In this document: in pieces, positions 10,421-41,670 of the stretch
Position numbering within the stretch: the stretch's first letter is position 1
How the letters are laid out: each line of letters opens with the position of its first letter
Notes under the pieces: model-generated
What the model saw: the letters and a program-made list of their open reading frames with translations, nothing else
Databases searched by the model: none
What the model was told of the DNA's origin: nothing
Assembly (NCBI GenBank): GCA_903866605.1
Contig: CAIPOF010000055.1
Span: forward strand, 1-53,775
DNA from: an uncultured bacterium
Lineage (GTDB): Bacteria > Patescibacteriota > Saccharimonadia > Saccharimonadales > Saccharimonadaceae
Length of the DNA stretch: 53,775 nt
Direction: 5' to 3'
Made by a program: the position numbers and the translations under genes

Positions 10421-11350
10421 ATGAGTATTTTGAGAAAAAGGCAAAAAGACATACCTAGGAGGAGGTCGGTCGAAGGTATCAAAGAAAAAACTTCTAGCCC
10501 TAATATATACAAACGCAATCGTACTCTTACAGGGACGACATCTAATCAGTTAAACAATGTAAATTCAAAAACAGACCTAGAATCACCCAGGGTTCATGCA
10601 CGTAATTTATCGATAAGACGTCGAAAAATATCATTTATTTTAATTTTAATTATAATTTCAGCAATACCAATTTGGATTATGATAAGTAACTTTACGGCTA
10701 GTGTCAGTGTCAACATAAACGACGTTACGGTATCTAAATCGGTTACATCTTCAAAGTACGAACAAGCAATTCAGGATTATCTAAATATGAATCCAATGAG
10801 TAGGTTACTATTTATTTTGGATAAATCCGCCATGAGCGCATATGTATCATCAAAATTGCCAGAAGTATCAAACATTCAGAAAATTAACACAGTAGGTATC
10901 GGAAAAACAAATTTTACAATTTCAATGCGTGTACCAATAGCTGGTTGGCAAATAAATGGAAAACAGTACTATGTTGATTCGAGTGGAATACCGTTTGAAG
11001 TTAATTATTATTCTGCCCCACCGGTACAGATTGTCGATAACAGTGGTATAACGCCAAAAATTAGCTCAATTGCAATTGCTAGCACCCGTTTTCTAAGTTT
11101 TGTAGGAAAAGTTGTTAACGAAGCAAAACAGAGTGGTTATACTGTTACACAGGCAATACTGCCAGAAAATACAACAAGAGAATTAGAGGTTAGATTAAAG
11201 GAAGGTAACTATTTAATAAAATTATCAATAGATCGACCAGTAGGGGAGCAAATAGAGGATATGACAGCAGCAGTTAGGTACTTTGCGGAACATGGCCAAA
11301 ATCCACAGTATATTGATATTCGTGTAAGCGCAAGGGCATTCTATAAATGA
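10421..11350 (+). CDS. ftsQ: FtsQ-like cell division protein (POTRA-containing)
   Basis: Basic cytoplasmic N-terminus, a single TM helix (ILILIIISAIPIWIMI) and a POTRA-like region ending in YYVDSSGIPFE. It follows murG. Confidence 0.7.
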   Translation: MSILRKRQKDIPRRRSVEGIKEKTSSPNIYKRNRTLTGTTSNQLNNVNSKTDLESPRVHARNLSIRRRKISFILILIIISAIPIWIMISNFTASVSVNINDVTVSKSVTSSKYEQAIQDYLNMNPMSRLLFILDKSAMSAYVSSKLPEVSNIQKINTVGIGKTNFTISMRVPIAGWQINGKQYYVDSSGIPFEVNYYSAPPVQIVDNSGITPKISSIAIASTRFLSFVGKVVNEAKQSGYTVTQAILPENTTRELEVRLKEGNYLIKLSIDRPVGEQIEDMTAAVRYFAEHGQNPQYIDIRVSARAFYK

Positions 11351-20451: not shown

Positions 20452-20480
20452 TTGACTTATTGTCAAATAAGTGCTAATAT
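20452..20480 (+). promoter_or_regulatory. Near-consensus promoter with extended -10
   Basis: TTGACT (20452-20457), a 17-nt spacer ending in TGC, then TAATAT (20475-20480). There is no annotated plus-strand gene downstream. Confidence 0.55.
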
Positions 20481-20486
20481 CAGTCT

Positions 20487-20752
20487 CGATTGGTTACATT
20501 GCGAGATTAACCAAACGCACCTTATACCCCTATTCTAACTTATGTTAGATTATATACAATGTTTTTTTAAGGTAGACTACCCTCCAACCTTAAGAAATGA
20601 TACTTCGAGTATAAGCATTGTATATATACTAATCCCTTTAACCAGCAGGTGTCTGCGATTTAGTCGAGACCTACCTAGCTTGCCCCACGGGTGGGTTAAA
20701 GGGTAAAATAGCGCCCTCAGCGAAGCCCACCCTTGCTGTGGGCGCTTTTTTT
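20487..20752 (+). ncRNA. Candidate structured small RNA of unknown family
   Basis: Bounded by the promoter above and an intrinsic terminator. It has an 11-bp stem (20551-20561 / 20616-20626). An inner 11-bp hairpin (20563-20573 / 20587-20597) has one G-U that works only on the plus strand, and its loop contains CCCUCC. A 10-bp stem joins 20634-20643 and 20694-20703. Confidence 0.45.
20710..20752 (+). terminator. Intrinsic terminator, probably bidirectional
   Basis: GCCCAC-ccttgct-GTGGGC (alternatively AGCGCCC...GGGCGCT) is followed by T7 (20746-20752). On the minus strand the same hairpin is followed by AUUUUACCCUUU. Confidence 0.6.
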
Positions 20753-20771
20753 GCCCAAAATTTCGTCCTGC

Positions 20772-20885
20772 CGAACCATTAGGCTATCAAATCTTCCGGG
20801 CCGCTTTACGTGTGACTTTGTCAGCACGTGGCGCTAGGCTTCGCTAACGCTCTCATCCCTTCAGATTTAATAACCTAACGGTTCG
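20772..20885 (-). ncRNA. Candidate structured RNA element downstream of pth, unknown family
   Basis: A 23-bp closing helix (20772-20794 / 20863-20885) whose three non-Watson-Crick positions are G-U only on the minus strand. It encloses two hairpins. Confidence 0.4.
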
Positions 20886-20960: not shown

Positions 20961-21527
20961 TTAGCTAATCTTGTGGCTTGTGTGTTCGAGTGAACTACTG
21001 CAAAATTGAGTAACTAATTTAACAGAATGCGGAATTATTTTTTCAATCAATAAGGTTAATTCGGGGTTAGTGAATTTTGCCAGTACAAATGACGCATCAT
21101 CTATTTTTACTTCTGACTCGATTGCAATACCTATTTTGATGCGCGTATACGGTGAGTCAATGTGGGTATTTATGGATTTAATACCGTTATTACCTGCGTC
21201 ACCGCCTTGTTTCCGAATTCGTATGGTACCAAATGGCAAACTTAAATCATCATGAATAACAAGTAAATCACTTGCGGTATCGAGCTTGTAAAAGTCGACT
21301 AACTTTCTGGCGGATATGCCTGTATCGTTATAATAAGTGGTTGGTTTAGCTAATATCACCTTCTGACCATCAATTTTAACCTCAGCGATAATAGCATCAA
21401 ACTTTGACTTTTTGGTCCATTTTGCGTCGTGCATGGTAACAATTGTGTTCAATACTAAAAACCCGGCATTATGTCGCGATAATGAGTAGTCTGGTTCGGG
21501 GTTGCCTTGGGCAAAAATCAGTTTCAT
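20961..21527 (-). CDS. pth: Peptidyl-tRNA hydrolase
   Basis: MKLIFAQGNPEPDYSLSRHNAGF, VIHDDLSLPFG and GGDAGNNGIKS motifs. It overlaps der by 4 nt. Confidence 0.9.
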   Translation of the reverse strand: MKLIFAQGNPEPDYSLSRHNAGFLVLNTIVTMHDAKWTKKSKFDAIIAEVKIDGQKVILAKPTTYYNDTGISARKLVDFYKLDTASDLLVIHDDLSLPFGTIRIRKQGGDAGNNGIKSINTHIDSPYTRIKIGIAIESEVKIDDASFVLAKFTNPELTLLIEKIIPHSVKLVTQFCSSSLEHTSHKIS

Positions 21528-31104: not shown

Positions 31105-31130
31105 AGCTTAAGCGTTATTATAACAGAAAT

Positions 31131-31258
31131 TGGTAGTTGGTAGTTAGTATATGGTAGGTAGTATTTAGTAGATGGTAGTGAGCCGTTGGCATATCATCAT
31201 ATTTATAGCTACTACCTACTACCTACTAATTACTATTTACTAAATACTACCTACTAAT
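31131..31258. repeat. Long imperfect palindrome built from GGTAGT / ACTACC units
   Basis: The left arm has five GGTAGT-like units and the right arm is their complement. An exact 16-nt pairing joins 31155-31170 and 31238-31253. The right arm overlaps the gltX stop (31247-31249). Confidence 0.6.
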
Positions 31259-32701
31259 TTGCGTAGCAATATCTATGGCTAACTTTAATCGAGAATTCAC
31301 TTTTTCAGGTCCAAGAATAGAAAGCGTTTCGTTTAGTGCTGGGCTAAATGGAGCCCAAGATATCACCAAGCGAATAATACTAAATAGGACAGCTGGTTTT
31401 TGACCAGTTGTTTCTAGCAGAGTGTTCAGATTTTGTTGGATTGATTTTGCATCATTATTGCTAGACGAAAGTGCAATTTGAGCACTTTTTAATAGACCCA
31501 TTATCTCGCCTATGTTCAATTTACTAAGATATTTGTCTTTTTCCACCATATCCCAATTTGGTTTTGGCTCGTCAAAGAAGTAGGATGTTAGTATCGGCAA
31601 ATCGGCCATTGTTTTTAGCCTATCTTGTACAAGTCCAAGAATTTGCATTTTATATTTCTCACTAGCCTGTTTAGCTGACTCTGGCCAAAAATCATGGACT
31701 CGTCTATAAAGTTCATCCAACGATAATCGACGAATCCACTGACCGTTTAGCCATAATAATCTTTTCTCATCGAAACGAGCAGGACTTTTTTGAATTCTAT
31801 CAAGTGAGAATTTTTGTATCAATTCATCGACGGAAAATATCTCTTGTTCGGTACCATCATTCCATCCTAGTGTTGCCAGGAAATTTATCATTGCTTCAGG
31901 CAAATAACCCTCTTTGGCGTATTGTAAAATATCCTTAGCACCATCCCTTTTGCCTAATTTTTTTTGACCGTCAATTGACATCACGTACGGAAGAGTTGCT
32001 AATATTGGCCGCTGTATATTAAGTGCTTCATATAAATTAAGAAATTTTGGTGTTGAACTAATAAATTCTTGGCTTCTTAGCACGTGTGTAATCCCCATCA
32101 TCATATCATCAATAACATGACAAAAGTTATAAGTTGGATATCCATCAGATTTGATTAATATAAAATCATCGATTACTTCTGGCCCAGTTGATAATTCGCC
32201 CATAACAGCATCATTCCAGCGATATGGTTTAGGATCCGATTTAAATCGTAAAGGCTTACTTTCAGCCCAAGTATTTACTGATTCACGGCGATGATTACGA
32301 TACAAGAATGGTATTTTATCAGCCTTAGCTTGATTGCGAAATTCTTCTAACTCCTCCTTGCTGTATGGATCGGTGTAGGCACGACCATTTTCGACAAGTT
32401 GATTTGCCCACTTTTTATATATGTCTAACCTTTTTGATTGAAGATATGGTGCGTTTGGACCACCAATACCTATTCCTTCTTGCCAATTTATCCCCAACCA
32501 TTTTAGACTTTTTTCAATTTGTTCAATGCTGCCTTCAACTTCACGGACCTTATCTGTGTCCTCGATACGCAAGATGAAAATACCATTATTTTTTTGAGCT
32601 ATTAACCATGAAAATAATGCTGTTCTAACACCACCGACGTGCATAACGCCAGTTGGACTTGGGGCGAAACGAGTACGAATTGGTAGTTGGGTTTTATTCA
32701 C
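31247..32701 (-). CDS. gltX: Glutamate--tRNA ligase
   Basis: FAPSPTGVMHVGGVRTAL (HIGH region) and KKLGKRDG (KMSKS-like). Full length for class I GluRS. Confidence 0.95.
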   Translation of the reverse strand: MNKTQLPIRTRFAPSPTGVMHVGGVRTALFSWLIAQKNNGIFILRIEDTDKVREVEGSIEQIEKSLKWLGINWQEGIGIGGPNAPYLQSKRLDIYKKWANQLVENGRAYTDPYSKEELEEFRNQAKADKIPFLYRNHRRESVNTWAESKPLRFKSDPKPYRWNDAVMGELSTGPEVIDDFILIKSDGYPTYNFCHVIDDMMMGITHVLRSQEFISSTPKFLNLYEALNIQRPILATLPYVMSIDGQKKLGKRDGAKDILQYAKEGYLPEAMINFLATLGWNDGTEQEIFSVDELIQKFSLDRIQKSPARFDEKRLLWLNGQWIRRLSLDELYRRVHDFWPESAKQASEKYKMQILGLVQDRLKTMADLPILTSYFFDEPKPNWDMVEKDKYLSKLNIGEIMGLLKSAQIALSSSNNDAKSIQQNLNTLLETTGQKPAVLFSIIRLVISWAPFSPALNETLSILGPEKVNSRLKLAIDIATQISR

Positions 32702-36956: not shown

Positions 36957-38327
36957 TTACGGTCTTACATAATGGGCATTGGCGGAATTTTTCCAGTAAC
37001 TTGAAGAACGTGAAAAGTATTTAACTTTACTGGGGAATGATCCTCCATTACCCTCGACAGTATAGTAATTGCCATTATTTAAAATTTTAATTAATATGCC
37101 CGTATGTCCTTTGGAGAGATCATTTGTATGCCAACCTACTATATCACCTGGAATTGGATTTCCATTATTATAATTTTTTAATCTACTTCCAGCTTTTGCA
37201 AACAAATCGCTTACCCCACAAGCTCTTAATGAATTGCCGTTATCATAAGGTGGACATGGTCCATTTTGAGGTGCACATGGTGGTGTTAATGTTGACTTAT
37301 GATGAATAAACGATACAAAAGAAGCACACCAAGCAACACCTGGGCAACCTGTATATTTTTGGTATTCACCTAATCGGTCATATTGCCATTTGTTATTACT
37401 ATCCTTCCATCTACCTATATTATCCCCTAATGCTAGAGTTTCTCCGTAACCTTTACCAGTTTCGTTTTCAGCATTTGCAACCATCTTACTATTTCGAATT
37501 TGTTGTGCAGATAGTGCGGTTATCCCTTCTTCGGCAGCTGACGCAGCTCTGGCTGTTGAAACCTCGGTTTCAACAGCCGTGAATTCCTCTGATGTCAGAT
37601 TATCTCCATCAGAAGTATCTGGACTTTCAATTGCCGCATCTGGCGTAGCAGGCTCTGGTGTTATTTCTGCTATAGGATCAACCACATTCGTAGGGTCGGA
37701 GCCAGAGGTTGTCGGCTCGGTTGTAGTTGTTGTCTCAGATGCAACCGTATTCTCTGTCGCAGGTGCAGCAAATAGTGGAATAACAAAATTATCTATTGCA
37801 TATCCAACTACAGAGTTGCCAGACGTGACAGATTTAAATTCTTGATTTATTGCATCAATTGCTTGTTGTGGAGTTTGACGAGTTTGAACCATCGTGGCAG
37901 AAGTGGCTGTAGGCACTGAAAATATTCCAACCACCCAATTTACCACCGCGTATGCCGCAATGGCGACCACCAGGCCTATGACCGAGTATAATATTGTGTT
38001 TTTGGCTGCTGTTATTGATTTTTCATCACCACCTGATATGGTATAGCGTATTCCACCGTATATCAGCATTAGTACACTGACGGCCCCAACAATATATAAC
38101 AAGGTGTTTACAATATTTTTTACTACCGAGTTTGAACCAAAAAGATTGCTGGGAGTACCATTATCTGATCCATCAGTGTTTTGATGGGCTTTAGCGGCAC
38201 CCTTTTGAAGACCAGTTGTAACAACAGAAGCAAAAACGTTAGAATTATTAAGTAGGATTGTTGCCGAGACTAATATTGGGATAATTAATAGTGCAACAAA
38301 GATTAATTTTAGAGTTTTTATTTTCAT
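36957..38327 (-). CDS. Fusion of a TrbC/VirB2-like T4SS pilin module and a CHAP-domain peptidoglycan hydrolase
   Basis: Signal/TM segment, then two TM helices flanking GGIRYTISGGDEKSITAAKNTI (pilin-like). A T/E/P-rich linker follows, then the CHAP motifs GVAWCASFVSF, GDIVGW...GHTGILI and YYTVEGN. Confidence 0.7.
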   Translation of the reverse strand: MKIKTLKLIFVALLIIPILVSATILLNNSNVFASVVTTGLQKGAAKAHQNTDGSDNGTPSNLFGSNSVVKNIVNTLLYIVGAVSVLMLIYGGIRYTISGGDEKSITAAKNTILYSVIGLVVAIAAYAVVNWVVGIFSVPTATSATMVQTRQTPQQAIDAINQEFKSVTSGNSVVGYAIDNFVIPLFAAPATENTVASETTTTTEPTTSGSDPTNVVDPIAEITPEPATPDAAIESPDTSDGDNLTSEEFTAVETEVSTARAASAAEEGITALSAQQIRNSKMVANAENETGKGYGETLALGDNIGRWKDSNNKWQYDRLGEYQKYTGCPGVAWCASFVSFIHHKSTLTPPCAPQNGPCPPYDNGNSLRACGVSDLFAKAGSRLKNYNNGNPIPGDIVGWHTNDLSKGHTGILIKILNNGNYYTVEGNGGSFPSKVKYFSRSSSYWKNSANAHYVRP

Positions 38328-39979: not shown

Positions 39980-40780
39980 CTATTTGTCAATTTTAATACT
40001 AATTGGGCAATGGTCTGAACCCAGAATATTTTGGTGTATCTGTACATCAGTTATTTTATTAACAATAGGCTTACTAACTAACCAATAATCAAGACGCCAT
40101 CCAACATTACGAACTCTTGCATTAGCCCAGTGTGTCCACCAAGTGTAGGCATCAGATCTATAAGGGAATTTGAACCTGTATATATCGACAAAGCCCGCTT
40201 TTTCGAATTTATCGAAACCTGACCTTTCTTCGTTGGTAAAGCCATGTTTTCCAATGTTTGATTTCGGATTGGCAAGGTCAATTTCATTGTGTGCTACGTT
40301 TAAATCGCCACAAAATAGAACAGGTTTTGTTTGTTCAAGTGTTTTTATGTGTTCTAAAAATGCAGGGTCCCATTGTTCGTGACGAAGTTTTAACCTGGAC
40401 AAATCACTTTTTGAGTTAGGCGTATAAACTGTAACAACCCAAAAATTATCAAATTCAGCTGAGATTACTCTACCCTCTTTTGTCGGATCACCATAACTAT
40501 CACTGGGTAGTTTATTTTTTTCAATGATACCATCTGCGAACCCGTTAATAACGCTAAGGGGTTTAATTTTGGAAAAAATTGCAGTTCCGCTATAACCAGC
40601 TTTATCGGCACTATTCCAATATTCAATATAATCTGGTAAATTTATTTCGGCCTGTCCTTCACGGGCTTTGGTTTCTTGTAAACACAAAATATCAGGCTGA
40701 TGCTCGGCCATAAATGTTTGAAAAGCACCTTTTTTTATAACTGCCCGAATTCCATTGACGTTCCAAGAATATAGTTTCAT
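39980..40780 (-). CDS. xthA: Exodeoxyribonuclease III
   Basis: MKLYSWNVNGIRA, LCLQETK and GSDHCPISI motifs. ATG 40780 has a GAGG SD. The in-frame upstream extension to 40885 is not conserved-looking. Confidence 0.9.
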   Translation of the reverse strand: MKLYSWNVNGIRAVIKKGAFQTFMAEHQPDILCLQETKAREGQAEINLPDYIEYWNSADKAGYSGTAIFSKIKPLSVINGFADGIIEKNKLPSDSYGDPTKEGRVISAEFDNFWVVTVYTPNSKSDLSRLKLRHEQWDPAFLEHIKTLEQTKPVLFCGDLNVAHNEIDLANPKSNIGKHGFTNEERSGFDKFEKAGFVDIYRFKFPYRSDAYTWWTHWANARVRNVGWRLDYWLVSKPIVNKITDVQIHQNILGSDHCPISIKIDK

Positions 40781-41075
40781 TACCTCTATTATAATACAAT
40801 TTTCACCCATTGTGGGCCTTTCTGTCCGATTAATATCTTTGTTTTCGTTCGTATCCTTCACATCATCGTAATAAACGATAACCAATCTCGTTTCGCGTTA
40901 ATAATTTAATCCAGACAACTTTGTATCCTGCGTAACTCGTTACCACTCAAACATACTCGGATAGCACGGTTGCCTGGATTAAAATATTACGGTAACTCAA
41001 CAGGTTATCTTATTATCACAATGAAATGAAGTCTACTAAATGCGCAAATCAAGTATGATATCACTTACTTTATTA

Positions 41076-41149
41076 CCAACAGACTGTGCCGGAAGGCAGC
41101 CGAACGCCACGTGCTAATCCAAAGGATTACACGTAGAGTGTGCTGTTGG
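41076..41149 (+). ncRNA. Second copy of the CGCCACGUGCU-hairpin-ACACGUA motif inside a closed stem; strand uncertain
   Basis: Closing stem CCAACAG/CUGUUGG. Hairpin UGCC-GGAA-GGCA. Hairpin 41109-41134 is homologous to 20808-20829 with a compensatory apical stem. Confidence 0.3.
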
Positions 41150-41193
41150 AATAAATGTAAGTGACAGCAGACGGTAGAAAGCAAAAACGTCTT

Positions 41194-41670
41194 TTATGAG
41201 TTTTTTATTGCTCGCTGAATATCACGCTCTTGGTCACGACGTTTCATAGTTTCACGTTTATCGTAATTTTTTTTACCTTTTCCAAGCGCTATCACTACTT
41301 TTATAAAACGTCCACCTGTCAATATTTTTATTGGCACGATACTCATACCTGATTGTTTTTTATCATATAAGTTATCAATTTGTTTGCGATTGGCCAGTAA
41401 TTTTCGAGGTGAAGTGTCAATACTTCGTGCGCCAACTTTGCCTTTTTCATTTAATTTCAAACTGAAACTGGCGTTGTTCAGCCACAATTCATTATCACGG
41501 ATACTGACGAAAGATCCTTTTAATTGAATATGACCGTCACGGGCAGCTCTTGTCTCTAGTCCTGTAAGTGCAATACCAACTACTAACTCATCATCCAAAG
41601 AGTAATCAAAAGAAGCCCTTCGATTTACGATGGATTTAGGTTTACTGCTGATTTTCTTTTTCTGTGCCAT
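41194..41670 (-). CDS. smpB: SsrA-binding protein SmpB
   Basis: IVNRRASFDYSLDDELVVGIALTGLE...LKGSFVSIRDNELWLNNASF plus a basic C-terminal tail. Confidence 0.95.
   Translation of the reverse strand: MAQKKKISSKPKSIVNRRASFDYSLDDELVVGIALTGLETRAARDGHIQLKGSFVSIRDNELWLNNASFSLKLNEKGKVGARSIDTSPRKLLANRKQIDNLYDKKQSGMSIVPIKILTGGRFIKVVIALGKGKKNYDKRETMKRRDQERDIQRAIKNS

Follow-up and report, generated by a model that had tools for sequence, protein, structure and literature searches.

A multi-copy structured intergenic element of Saccharibacteria and its two copies beside smpB and pth

Dispersed intergenic elements and the A element

The ERIC/IRU sequences of Enterobacteria, imperfect palindromes of ~127 bp located in transcribed intergenic regions, are close counterparts of the element analysed here, named A, of which two copies lie in the window, i.e., the whole low-G+C stretch of 53,775 nt (contig CAIPOF010000055.1 of assembly GCA_903866605.1) from an uncultured bacterium of the Saccharimonadaceae. 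ERIC/IRU and A are alike in size class, in forming a long imperfect hairpin, in their intergenic location in either orientation, in their many copies and in their conservation across species; unlike ERIC, with which it shares no sequence similarity, A is built around an invariant, non-palindromic three-way junction, is clearly selected on a single strand and is confined to Saccharibacteria. REP/BIME sequences, including REPINs, are also dispersed extragenic hairpins that, like A, form inverted head-to-head pairs and mosaics with other repeats and are homogeneous within some genomes. In contrast, REPs are simple palindromes of 20-40 nt with a conserved GTAG end, present in hundreds of copies and mobilised by RAYT, whereas A is ~140 nt long and branched, with no RAYT-like neighbour gene seen. 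MITEs such as the Correia elements of Neisseria have in common with A the presence/absence polymorphism, the occurrence of the same module at unrelated sites, inverted-repeat flanks on some modules, and long hairpins if transcribed, but conserved terminal inverted repeats (TIRs) do not appear to bound all copies of A and no target-site duplication was found, its arms covary, and many of its copies are ancient and positionally conserved. Lastly, sibling small RNAs and the rod-shaped RNAs of ribonucleoproteins (Y RNAs, SRP RNA, 6S RNA) resemble A in the pairing of their ends into a long stem, in a conserved module at one end and in paralogues with variable stems; by this analogy, the conserved part of A would be a protein-binding site. 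In contrast, A matches none of the Rfam models for Y RNA, SRP, 6S, tmRNA or RNase P, its neighbours seen include no rsr/Ro-like gene, its copy number and signs of mobility exceed those of typical small RNA genes, and its promoter and terminator are not evident. A belongs among the dispersed structured intergenic RNA elements and most resembles the ERIC, REP/BIME and MITE-type extragenic repeats in genomic behaviour and the protein- or ligand-binding structured RNAs in conservation pattern.

Each of the two hairpins recognised in the window is the apical arm of one copy of A, a Saccharibacteria-specific, multi-copy structured element, and the two copies are paralogous. Its fold is genuine, strand-specific, deeply conserved and branched, and the family is Saccharibacteria-wide; the data do not support a specific link to smpB, pth or ribosome rescue. 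The family is previously uncatalogued and absent from Rfam, and a literature search found no published description of the element. With more than 160 sequences and riboswitch-grade covariation, it provides a concrete, testable RNA for Saccharibacteria (TM7), which are reduced-genome epibionts. According to a 2022 preprint on the TM7x transcriptome, TM7x has no validated small RNA.

Two copies of one branched fold in the window

The hairpin of copy 1 lies on the minus strand at 20807-20833 (from 20804 with the trailing AAG) and that of copy 2 on the plus strand at 41105-41135 (to 41138 with the trailing GAG), and the positions and sequences given for both by the initial annotation are all confirmed. 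The motif CGCCACGTGCT-(paired stem)-ACACGTA has exactly two matches in the whole window, and the pattern CGCCACGTGCTN{5,25}ACACGTA, which likewise matches the window twice, averages 0.00 matches over 100 dinucleotide shuffles, none of which contains two. As had been described from the letters alone, the 11-nt flank, the 7-nt flank, the bulged C and the AAA loop are identical in the two copies, and the apical stems differ (GAC/GUC in copy 1, AAUCC/GGAUU in copy 2) and are each fully paired. The longer closing stem noted around each hairpin is also present and is part of a larger conserved fold in both copies. Specifically, the closing stem of copy 2 (CCAACAG at 41076-41082 with CTGTTGG at 41143-41149) continues outward into a 21-bp rod (41061-41164), and the rod encloses a three-way junction made of a small hairpin, a junction strand of 5-7 nt and the conserved hairpin; this fold has a minimum free energy (MFE) of -49.5 kcal/mol (z = -4.35). 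The architecture recurs in copy 1, at 20772-20885 of the minus strand (fold z = -8.1).

The covariance model R1, run over the window, finds only copies 1 and 2 (86.7 and 97.8 bits, respectively). Its next best match, at 31144-31237 with 15.6 bits, was rejected as a third copy, being a low-complexity GGTAG-rich palindrome devoid of the core. This spurious match originates from a long, imperfect, GGTAG/CTACC-rich palindrome that occupies the intergenic positions 31115-31260.

Copy 2 spans 41043..41181 on the plus strand, adjoining smpB, and the model matches it at 41058-41168 (E = 2e-27); its outer limits were set by alignment with the copy at locus L045 of another genome and with other copies. 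Its 5' and 3' ends form the rod capped by the three-way junction, and its 3' tail reads GACGG-UAGAAAG. The P3 arm (41104..41141, plus strand), which corresponds to the hairpin first noticed, comprises the invariant block CGCC/ACGUG-C-U ... A-CACGU-A-G-A-G and the variable apical stem-loop AAUCC-AAA-GGAUU. The P2 arm (41087..41098, plus strand) is the small hairpin UGCC-GGAA-GGCA, directly followed by the conserved junction strand AGCCGAA (41098-41104, plus strand). A small hairpin preceding the conserved one had been reported with a GNRA-like cap: the hairpin is there, and the description of its cap is only loosely true, the loop being GGAA in copy 2 and GGUA in the family consensus (GCC-GGUA-GGC).

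Family size, covariation and strand specificity

A search for further copies with a covariance model, recording the neighbouring genes, had been proposed by the initial annotation, and it finds many across Saccharibacteria. An 18-nt pattern scanned over 185,579 species-representative genomes matches at least 116 loci. Among the matches listed, ~27 lie in loci of 39-46% G+C, with one at 55%, and carry the titles Saccharibacteria, Saccharimonadales, Saccharimonas or "bacterium"; in all of these ~27 low-G+C matches the apical stem is perfectly paired and differs in sequence and length (GAC/GUC, GGCG/CGCC, GACCCC/GGGGUC, GACCAC/GUGGUC, GGCC/GGCC, AACCU/AGGUU), and the loops are varied. The ~90 other listed matches were discarded as chance, lying in loci of 48-74% G+C and having no hairpin. 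A 21-nt version of the pattern scanned over the JGI metagenomes matches at least 120 loci, 119 of 120 among the matches listed being low in G+C, with at least 59 distinct apical segments, nearly all of them perfect hairpins. In the Saccharibacteria DNA that was fetched, an nhmmer profile identifies 167 non-overlapping copies of A.

For 22 copies aligned with MAFFT, RNAalifold yields a structure of 30 pairs, 18 of them with compensatory changes. Model R1 finds 115 copies in 100 metagenome loci, and in the resulting alignment the paired fraction of the cells is 96.1%, dropping to 25-45% once the partners are shifted by 1-3 columns, and 23 of the 30 pairs show changes on both sides; since this alignment is fitted to the model, its counts lean towards structure, a bias from which the MAFFT alignment and the raw list of apical stems are free. 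The pair columns of P2 (44-45/69-70) covary as well, and none of 500 shuffles attains any of the covariation measures observed in the R1 alignment. Selection on the pairing of the hairpin, first proposed from two sequences, is thereby supported, the evidence from covariation being overwhelming once homologues are added, and A shows what is generically expected of a structured non-coding RNA, i.e., compensatory changes that keep a common fold beyond controls. Moreover, G-U pairs far outnumber A-C pairs (146 vs 23, ~6:1, one invariant G-U left out), and the pairing is therefore selected on one strand only.

Across the family, A measures ~135-145 nt, and its 5' end (ACGUY...) pairs with its 3' end (...RACGG-YAGAAA) to form an irregular rod of 35-45 bp with a three-way-junction cap, according to the consensus 5'-ACGUY-(rod)-CCAACAG-ACUGU-[GCC-GGUA-GGC]-AGCCGAA-CGCCACGUGCU-[variable hairpin]-ACACGUAGAGUGUG-CUGUUGG-(rod)-RACGG-YAGAAA-3'. 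The near-invariant parts are both junction strands (ACUGU, AGCCGAA) and the P3 helix in its lower and middle portions (CGCC/ACGUG-C-U ... A-CACGU-AGAG-UG); the rod, P2 and the tip of P3 drift by compensatory change.

Possible mode of action

The favoured proposal, tentative and somewhat short of being probable, is that A may be a small RNA encoded at dispersed sites, with an invariant junction to which a trans-acting factor would dock and a rod that would be a stabilising or processing handle. A would act as RNA; the invariant junction and the P3 stem would be the putative docking site for a protein or RNA acting in trans, and the rod could stabilise the molecule or direct its processing, for example by RNase III. 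The copy adjacent to smpB would represent one lineage-specific insertion of a module formed by A and a companion element, B, and not a regulator of smpB.

A set of observations weighs against this proposal. Upstream of 82 anchored copies of A no canonical sigma-70 promoter is conserved, the only upstream signal being a weak AATnTT ~9 nt before the 5' ACG, and a terminator-like site is found downstream in only nine of 94 copies; independent transcription units are therefore only a possibility. In the pairs formed by B and A, only ~15 nt separate the starts of the two rods, too little for conventional promoters. The expression route of the A sense strand is thus the main weakness of any RNA-level model. 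Furthermore, the reading of A as a selfish repeat, weighed below, fits several features as well or better, namely five near-identical copies at contig ends in one genome, shortened copies, TIR-like flanks and the movement of modules. In the window, neither a promoter nor a terminator is called around copy 2 by consensus scans, which find around copy 1 only the plus-strand promoter and terminator that belong to another transcript, RNA-X. A weak hairpin on the plus strand (AGACG...CGUCU followed by UUUUAU, 41169..41198), overlapping the smpB stop codon, could be a possible terminator for copy 2 and was not called by the consensus terminator scan.

Lack of own promoter and terminator signals would be expected if A were a cis-acting element of the neighbouring mRNAs, namely a processing or "punctuation" site for RNase III, a barrier to 3'-exonucleases, or an insulator against read-through. 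The location of the copies in spacers of tandem or convergent housekeeping genes, often 0-30 nt from a gene end, agrees with such a role, each strand folds stably (-55.6 and -52.6 kcal/mol), and the long, nearly double-stranded rod would be a plausible substrate for RNase III, given the established specificity of this enzyme. Nevertheless, a cis-acting role is distinctly unlikely: A is oriented at random relative to the flanking genes, yet selection acts on the pairing of one strand only; an invariant three-way junction is more than a simple barrier or insulator would require; and the rod is not followed by a U-tract.

Comparison with known RNA classes

The 4227 models of Rfam 15, which include tmRNA, SRP, 6S, RNase P, Y RNA, riboswitches, ribozymes and the D5-D6 domains of group II introns, detect only two tRNAs in the whole window at the gathering threshold, and at E<=10 the two A loci give only chance-level matches below 25 bits; six related loci also show no family match. 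The tmRNA search of ARAGORN reports only tRNA-Glu and tRNA-Leu in the window and nothing in five related loci (L143, L192, L053, L161, L203). A divergent SRP, tmRNA or 6S RNA is ruled out by the copy number, the lack of an Rfam signal and the branched apex. Hammerhead and other ribozymes, domain V of group II introns, the SRP Alu domain, k-turns and retron msr/msd do not fit A in order or sequence, as judged by eye against their consensus features, and they were rejected also because there is no nearby reverse transcriptase gene and no Rfam support.

A phage or viral origin was discarded, as a scan of IMG/VR returns two chance matches in G+C-rich coding DNA without the hairpin. An integron attC site was rejected too, its RYYYAAC motif occurring at the 5' end of some A copies without being general. 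A type I toxin-antitoxin system of the Sib/Ibs kind was also rejected, no small open reading frame (ORF) being conserved in A or B: in B of the window, AUG-UUU-GAG-UGG-UAA is a frame of four codons, and the same place in L045 holds ~45 non-homologous codons. A cis-regulatory leader or riboswitch is not consistent with a downstream gene that lies on the same strand in 45 cases vs the opposite strand in 57, and with neighbours that form ~146 clusters of diverse function. Lastly, A is not an intrinsic terminator: its 3' tail is A-rich (YAGAAA), and a terminator-like site occurs within 130 nt in 9/94 copies vs 23/94 in the control direction.

Genomic neighbours and the ribosome-rescue idea

The 167 copies of A adjoin ~146 clusters of neighbour proteins, mostly with general housekeeping functions. 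The copies are intergenic, only 11 lying inside ORFs of at least 80 aa according to a crude ORF call. The types of spacer that host them mirror the background (65 tandem, 22 convergent, 15 divergent), and the copies are oriented at random relative to the genes on either side, with 30 same/same, 35 opposite/opposite and mixed cases numbering 22 and 15. The most recurrent neighbours are UvrA (8), a surface-repeat protein (7), acetate kinase (ackA, 6), Pth (5) and DnaK (5), followed by MurB, a class-I release factor (prfA/B), DprA, RpoC, trigger factor (tig), RNase Y (rny), TilS and DinB, with four occurrences each, and by SmpB, S2, L27, L31, Obg, Der, GatC, SpoU, FtsJ, ClpP, GrpE, FtsK, RpoD, SbcB and a DEAD-box helicase, with three each; comEC is a neighbour once. 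Inside each neighbour cluster the position and orientation of A are mostly constant, indicating that many copies occupy inherited positions; pth-dprA, smpB-xth and the 3' end of rpoD are examples of positions and orientations recurring between genomes.

The initial annotation had connected the two hairpins with ribosome rescue and peptidyl-tRNA recycling on account of their adjacency to smpB and pth, which would make A a regulatory RNA functionally tied to these processes. Copies are indeed found near pth in at least six lineages, near smpB in three and near class-I release-factor genes in four. The recurrence is equal at uvrA, ackA, dnaK, murB, rpoC, tig, rny and dinB, and although many of the recurrent neighbours are translation-related, an enrichment of translation genes was considered and is not claimed, since genes for DNA repair, chaperones and transcription come up as often and any count of recurrence is biased towards conserved housekeeping genes. 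Around pth, the copy is variously located upstream, downstream or beyond dprA, and ARAGORN finds no tmRNA-like or tRNA-like features. At smpB, relatives with an 83-88% identical SmpB have no copy within 20 kb and a smpB-xth spacer of 22-66 bp, which also rules out an RNA conserved at this locus. Copies scattered at the ends of unrelated genes, the pattern that the initial annotation had named as speaking against its proposal, are essentially what is observed: neighbours are diverse, orientation is random, the smpB site is empty in relatives, and the same module occurs at sbcB/uvrA. The distribution of A thus already largely refutes a rescue-linked function, which retains hardly any probability, and the recurrences near pth, smpB and release-factor genes look like inherited positions. 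This removes the tempting but wrong inference of a ribosome-rescue RNA beside smpB.

Pairs, mosaics and signs of mobility

Head-to-head with copy 2, and separated from it by ~15 nt between the rod bases, the window contains B, a conserved hairpin of 188 nt on the minus strand (40849..41036). The 9-bp stem that had been singled out in this spacer (40906-40914 / 40974-40982) is present and constitutes the inner part of B. The MFE of B is -76.6 kcal/mol on the minus strand (z = -9.7) vs -50.5 on the plus strand, and its sense strand is the more stable one in all 12 copies. B is conserved in L045, L084, L071 and ~14 metagenome loci (~18 loci in all) with the apex GCUAUCCGAGUAUGUUUGA-[hairpin]-GAGUUACGCAGGAUAC, and it is divergently oriented to an A copy in every locus but L233, where the arrangement is tandem.

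For 40 copies of A, a partner element lies head-to-head at a distance of no more than 700 nt; it is a second A in 22 cases and a B in 18. Convergent pairs are not found, and there is one tandem pair. A third element, C, is the upstream neighbour of A in ~50 of 141 loci (L165, L170, L160, L176, L207 and others). It is absent from the window, a mini-version occurs in L001 (10478-10535), and no Rfam family matches it. The consensus of C reads ACGGGUGRCGUUCGGYGGGGC..CCCC-[hairpin]-AGGGGYGGACCGRRCGNCAGGACCCGCA, and its conserved fold of ~100 nt reads ACGGGUGRCGUUCGG...GGGG..CCCC...AGGGG..GACCGRRCG.CAGGACCCGCA; the strand is ambiguous by MFE, the sense being favoured in 23 of 39 copies. C and the A core have in common the block CCGAACGCCAC, in reverse complement as oriented here, and C also has the motif CGGCAGGAC in common with the 3' tails of A.

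This mosaic organisation bears on the possibility that A is a selfish, non-autonomous mobile repeat of the REP/REPIN, ERIC or MITE-like kind, whose fold would be the substrate, as single-stranded DNA (ssDNA) or RNA, of a transposase or nuclease encoded in trans, and whose core would be kept by selection for propagation and not for a host function. Presence/absence polymorphism at the smpB-xth site is consistent with it, as is the 340-bp B+A module of the window (40842-41181), which recurs with 77% identity in L045 between unrelated genes, i.e., exonuclease I (sbcB), a small membrane-protein gene and uvrA. In L045, an inverted 34-nt copy of the B arm (88% identity) follows A and flanks the module, and the S1/S3 inverted repeats flank 13 of 42 C+A modules; TIR-like flanks are seen only around such composite modules and are absent at the right end of the window copy, and the A rods themselves differ between copies. 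Shortened A fragments adjoin full copies. In the metagenome-assembled genome (MAG) CAIUMO01, five copies (L050, L099, L112, L125, L128) are 87-100% identical over a repeat unit of ~190 nt and lie 46-89 nt from contig ends, beside housekeeping genes (ValRS, RpoD, DEAD-box helicase, aminotransferase, FemAB), whereas identity is only 68-77% for the copies that occupy the corresponding rpoD 3' position in other genomes. These near-identical copies are suggestive of gene conversion or of re-insertion at preferred sites. A evidently breaks short-read assemblies, and its copy number in MAGs is for this reason probably underestimated. The intergenic location, the lack of orientation bias and of consistent promoter and terminator signals, and the head-to-head arrangement of the pairs, as in REPIN/BIME mosaics, also agree with a selfish repeat.

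Conversely, the short palindrome of REP/REPIN (20-40 nt, GTAG-type end) was rejected as a class for A, which is ~140 nt long, branched and begins with ACGUY, although A does form the inverted doublets typical of the class. No RAYT (Y1 HUH transposase) domain is found among 148 neighbour ORFs and ~40 further representatives, and no transposase, integrase, RAYT or reverse transcriptase among ~270 ORFs neighbouring A copies. No target-site duplication is recognisable when the filled site of the window is compared with the empty smpB-xth sites of L003 and L001, a comparison whose power is limited by divergence. Moreover, the rods differ completely yet stay paired, as opposed to the sequence-conserved terminal repeats of real MITEs, and the core is invariant at the level of riboswitches and housekeeping RNAs. 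Many positions and orientations are common to genomes whose proteins are only 60-85% identical, and the copies are therefore old and maintained, not decaying. On balance, a selfish repeat is the main rival explanation and a rather unlikely one. The positions of A are mostly vertically inherited, with occasional gain or loss, movement of whole modules and within-genome homogenisation.

The head-to-head pairs on opposite strands, devoid of promoter space, would also resemble the paired ssi signals of IncQ plasmids, and A could be a signal at the DNA level, with hairpins formed in ssDNA during replication, natural transformation or conjugation as sites of priming, recombination or uptake. Tolerance of G-T wobbles would produce the same strand asymmetry in ssDNA, and dprA recurs among the neighbours, with comEC found once. 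On the other hand, the adjacency to dprA is explained by one inherited locus, the junction strands and non-helical nucleotides are conserved as in folded RNAs, and A has no orientation bias relative to genes, which mostly follow the direction of replication. To our knowledge, no ssDNA signal has the architecture or the copy number of A, and a role of this kind is very improbable.

Returning to an action as RNA, A, B and C might together be the RNA part of an undescribed, Saccharibacteria-specific ribonucleoprotein system, in which abundant rod-shaped RNAs would bind a dedicated protein through the invariant junction. This extension is a long shot; possible roles would be the punctuation or processing of transcripts in compact, promoter-poor genomes or, in the epibiotic lifestyle, that of an RNA cargo or decoy, and the head-to-head A/B and A/A' modules would then be the functional unit.

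The smpB locus

The smpB gene (41194..41670, minus strand; PF01668) is convergent with copy 2 and encodes a protein named as a Saccharibacteria SmpB, with hundreds of relatives at 80-92% identity, several of them named Candidatus Saccharibacteria or Saccharimonadales. The next gene, coding for an xth-like exodeoxyribonuclease III (39980..40777, minus strand), lies 22-66 bp downstream of smpB in relatives. The smpB-xth spacer of same-species contigs (L009-L011) is as in the window. This site carries an A copy in three lineages, namely the window, L161 and L203 (SmpB 88% and 85% identical), and A is absent from the entire 20-kb loci of the relatives L001-L006, the short spacer of 22-66 bp being that of L001-L005 (SmpB 85-88% identical). 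The B+A module adjacent to smpB is lineage-specific and has been gained, lost or moved between lineages. In L006, the spacer is filled by an unrelated insert of ~578 bp and higher G+C content (10478-11054), which may be a small gene.

In the ORF list, xth begins at 40885 (TTG; MVIVYYDDVKDT...), and its extension (40778-40885) coincides with B's outer hairpin arm. The true start lies at ~40777 (MKLYSWNVNG), with a TATAAT-like box in front of it that L003 conserves; the listed N-terminal extension is a misread arm of the hairpin element, and the over-extended start is corrected here. The non-coding stretch of 413 bp that had been described between the two genes is present, and with the true xth start near 40777 it measures ~416 bp (40778-41193).

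The pth locus and RNA-X

Copy 1 (20772..20885, minus strand; model match 20775-20881) is a variant subtype of A, located between pth and a conserved plus-strand RNA, RNA-X. The pth gene (20961..21527, minus strand; PF01195 in an orthologue) lies 80 bp upstream of copy 1 on the same strand. A copy is present in the pth-dprA region of the window and of L053, L143, L192, L135, L162 and L076, with Pth identity down to 60%, and its placement varies (between pth and dprA, upstream of pth or beyond dprA). The pth slot also holds different subtypes of A: that of copy 1 is found in L053 as well, and the standard subtype in L143 and L192.

RNA-X (20487-20752, plus strand) is a non-coding stretch of ~265 nt between dprA and copy 1, equipped with a strong promoter (20452-20480; TTGACT-17-TAATAT, TG-extended) and with a terminator made of a G+C hairpin and T7. 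Its sequence hardly varies in L143, L192 and L053; the RNAalifold structure has 86 predicted pairs, nine of them compensatory, and the conserved sequences include the hairpin loop AGACUACCCUCCA, which is anti-Shine-Dalgarno-like, and the loop sequence ACCCUCCA. Rfam and ARAGORN give no match for it. RNA-X is probably a genuine small RNA gene that has not been described before, and it converges with copy 1. The G+C-rich hairpin flanked by an A-run and a T-run at 20701..20756, within which the plus-strand terminator is called (20725-20743 and T7), is near-invariant in four genomes and is a candidate bidirectional terminator common to copy 1 on the minus strand and RNA-X on the plus strand. Together with B and C, A and the RNA-X locus beside pth-dprA suggest an abundance of conserved RNA structures in the little intergenic space that these genomes have.

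Elsewhere in the window, the minus-strand gene at 36957-38327 codes for a 456-aa protein with an N-terminal region similar to pilins of type IV secretion systems and a CHAP-like C-terminal domain, according to the precomputed Pfam annotation of the identical gene in L009.

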